In this document: positions 12,851-62,989 of the stretch, in pieces
Numbering within the stretch: the stretch's first letter is position 1
How the letters are laid out: the number at the start of each line of letters is the position of its first letter
DNA from: Octopus vulgaris
Lineage: Eukaryota
NCBI GenBank assembly: GCA_951406725.2
Contig: OX597826.1
Coordinates: 37,200,001-37,264,000, forward strand
DNA length: 64,000 nt
Direction of reading: 5' to 3'
Translations under genes and position numbers: made by a program
Notes under the pieces: generated by a model
Told to the model about the DNA's origin: nothing
Database searches by the model: none
The model's input: the letters and a program-made list of their open reading frames with translations, nothing else

Positions 12851-13426
12851 ATTTGTACGTTTCATAATATCGTGAAAAGTCATAACAAATTACTTGGACT
12901 CGACATTTTCTTGCTAAACAGAAAACTGAAGGTATTTCTTAAAATATTACGGAAATATTTCCAACAGAAACCATAGGTTCAGGCATCTATGAAAGTAAAA
13001 CAAACACAATGTCTCGCGGAAATAACATTATATATGAAAATATGGTATTAACTTTGATTAAAAGAACCATTATTACTTATTCAAACATGGCGACGATAGT
13101 ATTATAAAACTGAGAAGTAAAATCGAAAATGAATTTCTTTTGACATTCTAAACATCTCTAAGCTGTATCTATTATCGTGGTATATTTAACATTATAATAA
13201 ACTGAATATAAATGAAAATTTTCTTATCGTAAATTGATTTAAGAAAAAAGAAACCAACAAAGATGAATAAATTGAAAATAGTTTATTCTGTGAAATGGTA
13301 AATGATCTCGGTCTGTGATTTACTGGTTAAATGTTAAAACAGTTCCACACTTAATTTACTATCCTTTAACATTCGTCAAAATATCTGCTAAGATTCCTTC
13401 AACAAAAATACATAATATTATCTTTA

Positions 13427-13797
13427 AGGCGCAGGAGTGGCTGTGTGGTAAGTAGCTTGCTAACCAACCACACGGTTGCGGGTTCAGTCCCACTGCGTTG
13501 CATCTTGGGCAAGTGTCTTCTGCTATAGCCCCGGGCCGACCAATGCCTTGTGAGTGGATTTGGTAGACGGAAACTGAAAGAAGCCTGTCGTATATATGTA
13601 TATATGTGAATATGTGTGTGTGTTTGTGTGTCTGTGTTTGTCCCCCTAGCATTGCTTGACAACCGATGCTGGTGTGTTTACGTCCCCGTCACTTCGGCAA
13701 AAAGAGACCGATAGAATAAGTACTAAAAGGTGGTGCTCCAGCATGGCCGCAGTCAAATGACTGAAACAAGTAAAAGAGTAAAAAGAGTAAAAGAGTA
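13427..13797 (+). mobile_element. tRNA-derived SINE, family C (octopus OR-like), near full length
   Basis: A box tggctgtgtgg, B box ggttcagtccc, core ttgggcaagtgtcttctgctatagcc...gccttgtgagtggatttggtagacggaaactgaaagaagcc, internal TA/TG repeat, and 3' tail ggtggtgctccagcatggccgcagtcaaatgactgaaacaag(taaaagag)n. Confidence 0.9.
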
Positions 13798-59870: not shown

Positions 59871-61845
59871 ACAATAGCGTCCTATGATTGTTGTTGCTGT
59901 TGTTACAGTGGACGTTAAAATTATTCTGGATGATGAAAAGTCAAATGAAGGAGATAAGATACAAGCATGTTGAGAAAGAGACAAGAAGAGATCCCCCATG
60001 ATAGATGCAACATTTATAGCACCAACAACTGCCGTAAAATTAATGGCAACAACAGCTTTAAGAAGTAAAGGAAATTGCAACAACAATAACTGCGACGCCA
60101 AAAGAATTAACATTTAAATAAGACCGCAAATAGTACAAACAGTTACAACTACAATATTGTGAACTGCAGACGTAATAACAAGAACAATAATAAAATAAGA
60201 GCTATCGTTGCCAAATTCTTTCTCAGCAATTATTGTTTGGGAATATCCTATTAACATTGGCGTATATTACTGAAGGAATCTCTAGCGATGAAAATATTAA
60301 ATGTTTCTCAATGGTCGATTAAATTATATTTTAAAATTCTAGAAAGTTAGAAACTTTCATATATTCTTTCTTTTTATATGTACATTCTATGCATTCGAGG
60401 AAAAAATATATTATTCATAATGAGTAAAAAATTTGCCATTTCACTTGTCTTAATATTTCTGTTTAAATATCTTGTGCAAGTTCTATTTTATTCTATATTT
60501 TCCAAGTGATTATAAATATGTGATCACTGTATTCATCGATACGATTGAACTGAAATACATTAAGACAATTCTGGCACGTATTGGATAGAGTTATAGATTT
60601 TTCTACTAATTTTAATCTTGAAAACGGGACAGGGTTAAAATGGGGTTAAAATGGATCATTTAATGCCGTGAACCTATGAACCAAACATTATGATTTGAAT
60701 ACATTTCTTTAAATCTACGTGAGAATTTTAATTTATTTGTAAGGAAAAATAACACTGACAAACATACAGAGAAACACACGCATAATCAAACACATGAAAC
60801 TATGCACATACATACACCGACATAATATCATATGCAAATGAACAGATACAAACATACAAAAACATACACAAGCTATCAATCAACAACAGACCCATGTAGG
60901 TGTATAGACATGAATTCATAAATGAACATATATGAACATAAGCATGCAAATCCCACAAGATACATATAGAGACACATATAAAATCATTCACAGCTCTGAA
61001 GGTGGTCAGTTCCAAATCATAAACACGTTGGTTCGATTCCTGTCCTGTGCTGTGAAACGCACCCAGCCTTTGAACAAGCTACTTCATTTAATGTTCCTTG
61101 ATTCTATTCAACAATATTAAGTGGTAGCAGAGTCTTCGTGAAGGCCTCTATAACCTTCTTTTGGCACTCACTACCATGGTTCGATCAGTTTAAATTAGAC
61201 ACTCGTCTAAAATACTAAGTGATCACTAAACTAAACTAAACTAAACTCGCTCGCAAGTGGTCGTTGACCATTTTATTATAACGCACTGTAAAACCCTGGC
61301 TGGAGGATTCTAGAACTGAAATGACAATGCCGATACTGGGCTTTCATATCGGATGAAATCCCAACACAGGAAGACAAACTGCAAGCACTCATTGCACTGA
61401 GAACTTTGGGGCAGAAAACTGAATTCCATAAACGTCAGTTCATTCTATCATAAGGAAAATGCACCAAATGCTTTAGAAACGATAATCCGGTACAGGAATT
61501 ATCATATAGGAGCTTTTTCTGTGCTACGAGTGGTGCGGGGATAAATTCTGCTCTGTGACACATTCATTTATATTTTATTTATCTCAGACATTAGACTGCA
61601 GCCATGCTGGAATACCACTTTTATGGGGTTTTAGTTGAGCAATTCGACACCCGCCTCCATCGTGCTTGGTTTTAAGTTTGTTACTTCTGTTGAACCAACA
61701 ATAGTTGCGAAATGGAAGTAGTGGGTCAAACAGAGACGAAAACGTCACACACACACACACAAACACACACACACGGATAAATAGGTACTCATGTAGGTAG
61801 GTAGGTAGATAGGTAGGTAGGTAGGTAGATAAATAGATAGATAGT

Positions 61846-61930
<85 letters not shown>

Positions 61931-62047
61931 GGTTTTTATCGCCTGAAAATTCCCTCACAAGGTATTGGTTGACCTGGGGCAAGTGGGAGCTACTTGCCGA
62001 AGGTGGTACACAATGGATTGAGACCGAAATTACGTAGCCGTAAAGCT

Positions 62048-62245
62048 TAAATCCTCAAATCCTTAAAAATGTTTTAACCCGAAGGCCGCGGCCATGCTGG
62101 GGCACCACCGCTGACCTCTTTCTTTATGCTTACAGCACGTAGGTTTCCTAAGCGGTCACCCATCTAAGTACTAACTAGGCTCGATGTTGCTTAACTTCGG
62201 TGATCGGACGAGAACCGATGCTTTCAACGTGATATGGCCGTAAGC
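62048..62245 (-). mobile_element. 5S rRNA-headed retroposed element (candidate SINE3 or 5S-SINE chimera)
   Basis: Full 5S head followed by ataaagaaagaggtcagc-ggtggtgccccagcatggccgcggccttcgggttaaaaca and a short aggattt repeat tail. The tail is homologous to SINE C (13729-13768). Confidence 0.8.
62128..62245 (-). rRNA. 5S rRNA-derived sequence (118 nt; probably not a functional gene copy)
   Basis: Minus strand gcttacggccatatcacgttgaaagcatcggttctcgtccgatcaccgaagttaagcaac...gttagtacttagatgggtgaccgcttaggaaacctacgtgctgtaagc. Terminal helix gcttacggc/gctgtaagc and A/C boxes recognisable; no T-run terminator immediately downstream; single copy. Confidence 0.92.
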
Positions 62246-62989
62246 TTCTTGATAATACTGTCAAGTCTTCGCCTTGCATTAAAAATCCCTCCATATACTA
62301 TTTTTTAACGAAACAATTCTCTTCTTATACGTATTTAGTGCTTAGTTTATTCATATTAGTTAATCCTATTCTTACCAAAAGCCACTTCGATATTTAAAAA
62401 CAAAGTTATCAAATATTAACAAATCAAGCTGAACAGGTCATTTTTGTCATTCAAATATAGAATGTTGAGAAAAGTACGAGTAATAAATGAAATTAGGTAT
62501 TTGTTGGGGGGGTTTTCTGTGATAAACAATATAAATAGAATAGGCAGAATATATTTACATTCTAAATATTTTTCTCACAGCTTGACTTTCTAATATCTAA
62601 ATATCTATCTGATTTAAATAATCGCTGCAGACTTTATATTTTCAGGCAAAAATTGATAATAATGATCGAAGAATATAAAATGAAACCAACCAATAAACGG
62701 TATTGAATTATGGAATGTAAAATAAATAGAAATTTGACAAAATAGACAAAGGTGATTCGTAAACAAATATGTATTTATTGAACGTTATTGACCAAGTTAA
62801 ACAATATTGCAAGTGTTTATTTTGAAATATAGACTTAAAAAGACTCATGAAGTACAAAGTATAATTTGTGTATGTGTGCGCACGTGTGTGTGTATGTATG
62901 TGTGTGTATGTGTGTGTGTATGTGTTTAAAATAGAGAAAATAACGCTTCATTAGATGTAGTAGAGTTTATATATTCTTTGGACCAGTTT

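Follow-up and report, generated by a model that had tools for sequence, protein, structure and literature searches.

5S rRNA copies joined to LINE 3' ends at a fixed LINE-side breakpoint in the Octopus vulgaris genome

The window, which is the whole stretch of 64,000 nucleotides that we analysed (contig OX597826.1, positions 37,200,001 to 37,264,000), contains on its minus strand a composite insertion in which a 5S rRNA copy is joined, through a short linker, to the 3' end of a LINE that we call LINE-A. Read 5' to 3' along that strand, and followed by a comparison copy from the plus strand, the features are:

62248..62275, minus: 5' piece of an old SINE C head, host of the insertion (aligns weakly and locally with the SINE at 13425; uninterrupted in the empty site)
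62242..62247, minus: upstream copy of the target site duplication, overlapping the first 4 nt of the 5S (microhomology)
62127..62245, minus: head, a full-length 5S rRNA copy (Rfam RF00001, 100 bits)
62114..62126, minus: 13-nt A/G-rich linker, seen in the window copy only
62049..62113, minus: last 65 nt of the autonomous LINE-A (65/66 identity to a copy at locus L061)
62089..62110, minus: hairpin 1, which hardly varies between the LINE families and SINE C
62075..62088, minus: hairpin 2, with a UUCG loop in the window copy (stem and loop differ between families)
62049..62069, minus: T5 run, then two AGGATTT terminal repeats (LINE-A copies end likewise)
62043..62048, minus: downstream copy of the target site duplication, AAGCTT
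61947..62042, minus: 3' piece of the old SINE C head, host of the insertion (alignment to SINE C and empty site)
13428..13797, plus: SINE C comparison copy, which has only the hairpin core in common with the chimera tail

The original prediction had described a complete minus-strand 5S copy of 118 nt that runs, without an oligo-T stretch, into a tail aligning with that of SINE C, the unit being nested in a SINE C head with AAGCTT on both sides. The Rfam search confirmed that the 5S copy is complete, at a length of 119 nt, and it differs from an array 5S gene (L029) by 3 substitutions. As predicted, there is no oligo-T behind it: the A/G-rich linker stands there instead and the tail begins at 62113. 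Compared with 19 array trailers, this linker gives a best match of 2 nt, and it likely stems from an oligo(A)-type extension of the 5S RNA that was captured, from untemplated bases, or from both. The nesting also proved real, since the two flanks align to successive parts of the head of the SINE C copy at 13425-13561. The two AAGCTT copies lie 199 nt apart, and an empty site was found in a contig of run X15, which jumps from 62042 to 62242 with 6 letters that fit either side; since it lacks the whole block, we conclude that this was a single insertion with a 6-bp duplication. Having 17 differences from the window in ~250 flank bases, the X15 contig likely represents another population or species. 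As for the tail, its alignment with SINE C holds over a 22-nt core (21/22), but the tail as a whole is the 3' end of an autonomous LINE with its own terminal repeat (65/66), which replaces SINE C as its source and bears out the idea of a LINE-type 3' stem-loop. A decayed 3' part of the host SINE C lies at 61575-61660 on the minus strand, with an old hairpin-tail copy at 61616. A repeat search of the window returned microsatellites only, and ARAGORN found no tRNA in it.

The tail starts at the C of CAGCGG, 7 nt before GGTGC and 11 nt past the ORF2 stop, and LINE-A copies accordingly show the end of an ORF upstream, with a stop 11 nt before the tail start. A full-length relative (P0001) carries RVT_1 and Exo_endo_phos_2 domains and shows 65% identity over half the query; Pfam matched nothing in the C-terminal piece of the LINE-A ORF. 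The one named protein relative comes from Argonauta, and from its C-terminal motifs we tentatively assign the partner LINE to the CR1 group. In each of the 8 stretches examined for a full-length LINE-A copy, the LINE extended over ~1.1 kb at most. LINE-A terminal repeats are short and are not poly(A).

Both hairpins are common to LINE-B, to other related LINE families and to SINE C, the first being near-invariant and the second varied in stem and loop. Across 17 aligned tails, 92.8% of cells in the two-hairpin structure are paired, compared with 23-47% in slid controls, and 3 of the 13 hairpin pairs are changed on both sides, so that the structure is retained despite base changes, as had been proposed. 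RNAalifold alone predicted hairpin 1 only, and single-sequence folding z-scores were weak (-0.33, -1.76 and -2.76). Several LINE families have a conserved TGTAGC motif 8-13 nt ahead of GGTGC (for example at L061:7938-7943, with other loci at L221-L240); these families were partly found by searching with TGTAGC, the motif falls in differing reading frames and SINE C does not have it. A LINE partner of SINE C was searched for and not found. SINE C-type tail-only chimeras do exist, and the likeness of SINE C to the LINEs begins at the same point as the chimera breakpoint. The window SINE C copy (at 13700-13735) and a second copy (L330) have a common internal deletion of ~40 nt, ending near the same pre-hairpin site.

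We then considered whether such copies form a family or arose as independent events, in a genome of 2.8 Gb on 227 contigs. Among 40 scored matches to the window element, at least 26 were dispersed copies on many contigs with the same 5S head and LINE-A tail (86-92% identity to the window copy), and an exact gap-pattern search gave at least 85 5S+tail matches over several tail types. At least 47 matches join U6 to the same tails, 5 of them being tandem duplicates: here one U6+tail chimera is repeated five times, ~20 kb apart, in a tandem segmental duplication (L210-L214; G000:C1:132.45-132.53 Mb). Exact LINE-tail matches (1542 for LINE-A and 2325 for LINE-B) far outnumber the chimeras (1542 vs 26). 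Whole SINEs also carry 5S copies, joined at the SINE's first bases (14 matches for one SINE).

While the LINE side of the junction is fixed, the 5S side differs from copy to copy. Linker strings were distinct at 62 of 62 separate 5S+tail loci; once cut at the breakpoint, they remained distinct in 24/25 LINE-A entries (one of the 25, L079, being a regex false hit) and in 27/28 LINE-B chimeras, with one identical pair per family. Many linkers reproduce nested stretches of 5S array gene trailers, matching over up to 14/14 nt (L019), others are A-rich, and 16/62 contain T4. The window copy has probably left no descendants, as no daughter bearing its linker was found. Of the tails labelled A, 9/27 follow the 5S variant T112A, as do 9/24 of those labelled B, these labels being wrong by eye at three loci (L295, L136 and L284); the partners of its 21 exact copies include LINE-A and LINE-B tails, whole SINEs and other repeats. 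This variant (A61G, T73C, T112A; L301-L321) has its own trailer and is seen among exact matches as 21 dispersed chimeras only, none of the 21 being in an array; its source gene may be lost or unassembled, and the chimeras possibly record a past 5S type. A 5S rDNA array at L069-L071 (G000:C4:35.21-35.30 Mb) consists of ~507-bp tandem units and inverted units with varied trailers, and position 102 is C in most array 5S genes and A in most retro-chimeras. That the tail might simply be 5S spacer was ruled out, as array genes have oligo-T trailers and a common upstream region.

Two class definitions, as given in the corresponding sections of SINEBase (PMC3531059) and PMC4494074, helped to place these copies. 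On the side of SINE3, the head is 5S-derived (at least 60% identity over at least 60 nt) and the repeats are short, dispersed and non-tandem; against a copy threshold of at least 100, we count at least 26 copies with the window's tail and at least 85 over all tails, and a common origin from a SINE master, visible as a shared junction and diagnostic changes, is missing. On the side of chimeric retrocopies, a small RNA immediately precedes a LINE 3' end and points the same way, one duplication surrounds the unit, LINE 3' ends far outnumber chimeras and junctions arise independently; the one feature that differs is the LINE part, which is variably truncated in U6/L1 and starts here at a fixed breakpoint. 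By these definitions, sequence comparison identifies the 5S/U6+LINE-tail copies as dozens of independent retro-chimeras of the U6/L1 kind and not as a SINE3 family, and the window locus is an ordinary member of this known class. The original prediction had offered both a SINE3 family and a one-off template-switch chimera: the first reading fails, while the second had the right class and underestimated the number of events, the fusions being separate and counted in dozens.

The fixed position of the LINE-side junction is the first of two results that call for an explanation. In all 23 typical 5S+LINE-A chimeras, two others having been set aside (one false hit and one older tail variant), the LINE part begins at CAG, with its C 7 nt before GGTGC. 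The window copy itself was the query that retrieved many of the LINE-A chimeras, a choice that favours copies with this junction; in the gap-pattern search, the 12 such LINE-A entries, read by eye, show it too. In 5S+LINE-B chimeras, the junction lies at RAA, in the same column, in 19/28 cases and at AA, within one base, in 26/28. The distance from stop codon to junction is 11 nt in LINE-A and ~23 nt in LINE-B; since it differs, the hairpin and not the stop codon appears to set the junction, three bases ahead of the conserved stem. A ribosome footprint at the stop codon was ruled out as the cause on the same ground.

Dispersed 5S copies gave a similar picture when taken from their 3' ends. Among the first 50 of 357 such matches, sorted partly by eye, 18 were joined to bare tails (2 of them SINE C-type), 22 to SINE 5' ends, 1 to a LINE body and 4 to another element, 5 being left without assignment, so that, of the 19 copies on a bare tail or in a LINE body, 18 have their junction at the hairpin (p = 8e-4 against 0.6). 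Most dispersed 5S copies in this set (L251-L300) are thus chimeras on some retroelement (45/50 assigned), and none of them is a 5S directly followed by poly(A) and flank. The sole in-body chimera of the 50, L267, has its 5S joined within a long LINE copy at a point preceding the endonuclease domain; an endonuclease-like start can be read by eye at this locus. Another locus, L125 (5S at 1533-1651), is a triple chimera U6+5S+tail made by two successive joins, in which U6 meets 5S at base 1.

The second result is the abundance of tails of ~60 nt without any head. Of the first 70 LINE-A matches among 1542, 31 stop no more than 20 nt from the search pattern (16 of them at 15-17 nt), none ends at 21-105 nt, and 39 continue into ORF2; ~10 of these 39 end in the next 600 nt, a rate that predicts less than one end per 20 nt. 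For LINE-B, 18 of the first 30 matches among 2325 end within 16 nt, whereas SINE C, with the same hairpins, gave a bare tail in 1 of the first 30 of its 49,635 matches. Bare tails thus make up about half of the sampled LINE insertions, the samples being first matches on first contigs and not random ones, with exact patterns that favour young copies. Given the 1/30 of SINE C, the stop would be a property of the LINE mRNA and not of the hairpins alone. Bare LINE-A tails have ragged ends, 2-20 nt before the pattern, and loose contig ends, among the best supported ones, cluster at the breakpoint in three runs with separate organism codes (X15, X16 and X20). Rfam detected no other RNA heads at 16 bare LINE-B tail loci, in a search that also missed the degraded U6 of L125. 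At L197, a bare LINE-B tail stands behind ~170 nt of GC-richer sequence without Rfam match, a possible unknown RNA head.

To account for both results, we favour an explanation in which the reverse transcriptase copies a short, precisely ended LINE RNA and then likely jumps to the 3' end of a 5S transcript, in many independent fusions; we give this explanation as a whole a probability of roughly 70%. The LINE mRNA would be reduced to a 3' RNA of ~65 nt, on which ORF2p would prime through the terminal repeat, AAG being common to repeat and target at the window locus. On reaching the 5' end of the short RNA, the enzyme would either integrate, leaving a bare tail, or jump to an abundant Pol III RNA, the acceptors being U6 or 5S with a U-rich or A-rich 3' extension, and the 5' end of the 5S would then join the target through the 4-nt microhomology. 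End-to-end jumping by the reverse transcriptase has reportedly been described for R2. Other junctions fall at true RNA 5' ends, namely SINE starts and, in L125, 5S base 1, which is why the hairpin site is likely an RNA 5' end as well. Since bare tails are ragged, some loss at integration has to be assumed.

How the short RNA would arise is less certain. The most likely route would be 5'-to-3' decay that halts three bases short of an ORF2p-bound hairpin, Xrn1 needing a three-base overhang, and such a stop would explain why Pol II LINE mRNA stops there and Pol III SINE RNA does not. Within the short-RNA model, we hold this decay stop slightly more probable than an even chance, and a site-specific cut slightly less so; a cut tied to the upstream TGTAGC explains the breakpoint about as well. 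The 87 Rfam matches obtained at E<=5 for 4 loci, including three LINE-A 3' ends, contained no ribozyme family, and HDV-like and hammerhead layouts at the LINE 3' end were tried by eye without their cores being found. Among the pieces listed for three runs guessed to be RNA, none bridges the 5S-tail junction, which is uninformative either way.

A short RNA would be superfluous if the reverse transcriptase stalled on intact LINE mRNA just past hairpin 1, for instance at a protein on TGTAGC, and then integrated or switched to 5S or U6. Such a stall would yield bare tails and chimeras without any special RNA, and TGTAGC is indeed kept in several LINE families and missing from SINE C. We nevertheless consider it unlikely: the rarity of bare SINE C tails shows that hairpins alone do not stop the enzyme, the junction tracks the distance to the hairpin and not TGTAGC, whose spacing varies, and other jumps occur at true RNA 5' ends (the 22/50 at SINE starts, and L125). 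Somewhat less probable still would be a ligation of RNAs before reverse transcription, in which a ribozyme or nuclease cut leaves a tail RNA with a 5'-OH that RtcB joins to U6 or 5S. It would fit a LINE side precise to a single base, and human U6/L1 provides a precedent, RtcB joining U6>p to 5'-OH L1 RNA in the experiments described in part of PMC6789731; yet according to the same part a 5'-triphosphate strongly reduced ligation, and many junctions here lie at SINE and 5S 5' ends. The 5S heads moreover end in variable U- or A-rich extensions, and the Rfam search found no ribozyme family on the three LINE-A 3' ends. SINE and 5S 5' ends are Pol III ends and carry a triphosphate.

A true SINE3 family, with one or a few 5S-headed masters transcribed by Pol III and retrotransposed by LINE-A, is largely refuted and in our view very improbable, even though at least 26 dispersed copies share head and tail, the 5S heads are near-intact and the stem-loop tail is LINE-derived. 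Its copies would have a shared linker, and there is none; head variants and tails assort freely, and U6 and SINEs provide parallels. In addition, T4 in 16/62 linkers and the T5 before the LINE-A repeats would end a Pol III transcript, yet the repeats are present in the copies. As T5 lies before the repeats, such a transcript would likely stop short of them, which also disfavours a self-transcribed mini-SINE. Least credible of all would be two events, in which a 5S retrocopy was added to the 5' end of a bare LINE tail that had inserted earlier, or a recombination at the DNA level: bare tails are common, but the empty site lacks the whole 199-nt block and shows a single duplication, and 85 pattern matches repeat this orientation and position.

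Returning to the jump from a short LINE RNA, its products resemble several known systems. In mammals, U6/L1 and 5S/L1 chimeric retrocopies are known, whose L1 part is 'variably 5'-truncated' in the sections of PMC11838501 and PMC6789731 that describe them; the octopus copies resemble these in that a full small Pol III RNA precedes a LINE 3' end with matching orientation, that a single target site duplication encloses the unit and that each arose independently, whereas their LINE side starts at the same position to within about one base and consists of a minimal module of ~65 nt. Their partner, unlike in mammals, is not of the L1 type and ends in short repeats instead of poly(A). Platypus and lizard have U6/L2, U6/Mon-1, U6/RTE and U6/AnolisSINE2 chimeras (PMC4476161, section on these chimeras), where the LINE is likewise stringent and has a 3' structure, the duplications are short, LINEs as well as SINEs serve as partners, and 'a short L2 sequence' is described; their U6 is mostly 5'-truncated, and that section mentions neither 5S nor a fixed breakpoint or an excess of bare tails. 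SINE3 elements are the 5S-headed SINEs of zebrafish, bats and lepidopterans (passages of PMC10886601 and PMC3531059), with which our copies have in common a 5S head and a LINE-derived tail, but not a master, a shared body or diagnostic changes; they are also low in copy number and have a terminator before the repeats. Crocodilian SINEU-2 elements, too, have gained a small RNA at the 5' end repeatedly and independently; SINEU differs in having master copies and in lacking a LINE with the same 3' end, whereas such a LINE is abundant here, which the relevant section of PMC4494074 treats as a sign of independent chimeras. As to an RNA that resists decay, small two-hairpin Xrn1 blocks of the Coremin type exist in plant viruses (PMC10321173, in the part concerned); the likeness lies in a small two-hairpin motif and a 3' RNA with a defined 5' end and is a mechanistic analogy only, with no sequence likeness shown, two hairpins that here follow each other without a spacer, and a resistance that is putative in our case.

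The novelty lies in the fixed breakpoint and in how large a share of the insertions are bare tails, small RNA/LINE chimeras themselves being already known. A literature search yielded nothing on cephalopod 5S/U6 chimeras or on a fixed LINE-side breakpoint, and Dfam and Repbase were outside its scope, so that a catalogue entry is possible; no cephalopod SINE3 is mentioned in the parts of PMC4758252 and PMC10886601 that cover such elements.

Rare template switches that leave no surviving intermediates are the usual explanation for how SINEs acquire LINE tails. In this genome, more than 100 such intermediates (at least 85 with 5S and at least 47 with U6) have survived with one common breakpoint, which makes the tail-gain step countable and testable and raises the questions of what cuts the LINE RNA there and why tRNA heads founded a family and 5S heads failed. 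In a joint and still tentative reading, for which the chances look rather less than even, cephalopod LINE mRNA may give rise to a discrete subgenomic RNA of ~65 nt, through an Xrn-resistant or self-cleaving 3' element, that would feed about half of the insertions and supply an exactly cut SINE tail for repeated 5S, U6 and tRNA-type heads, SINE C then being a success of this route. For annotation, the copies carry a warning, as their consensus would mimic a SINE3 family though no master copy seems to exist.

Some features of the target sites can be added. Target site duplications at other copies are short, reaching at least 6 nt in 6/18 compared with 3.0 expected from shuffled flanks. Full 5S heads often have ATATG just before base 1 (L002, L009, L011, L013, L022, L025, L127 and L132), possibly as untemplated bases or as part of a TA-repeat target, and many insertions sit in (TA)n tracts.
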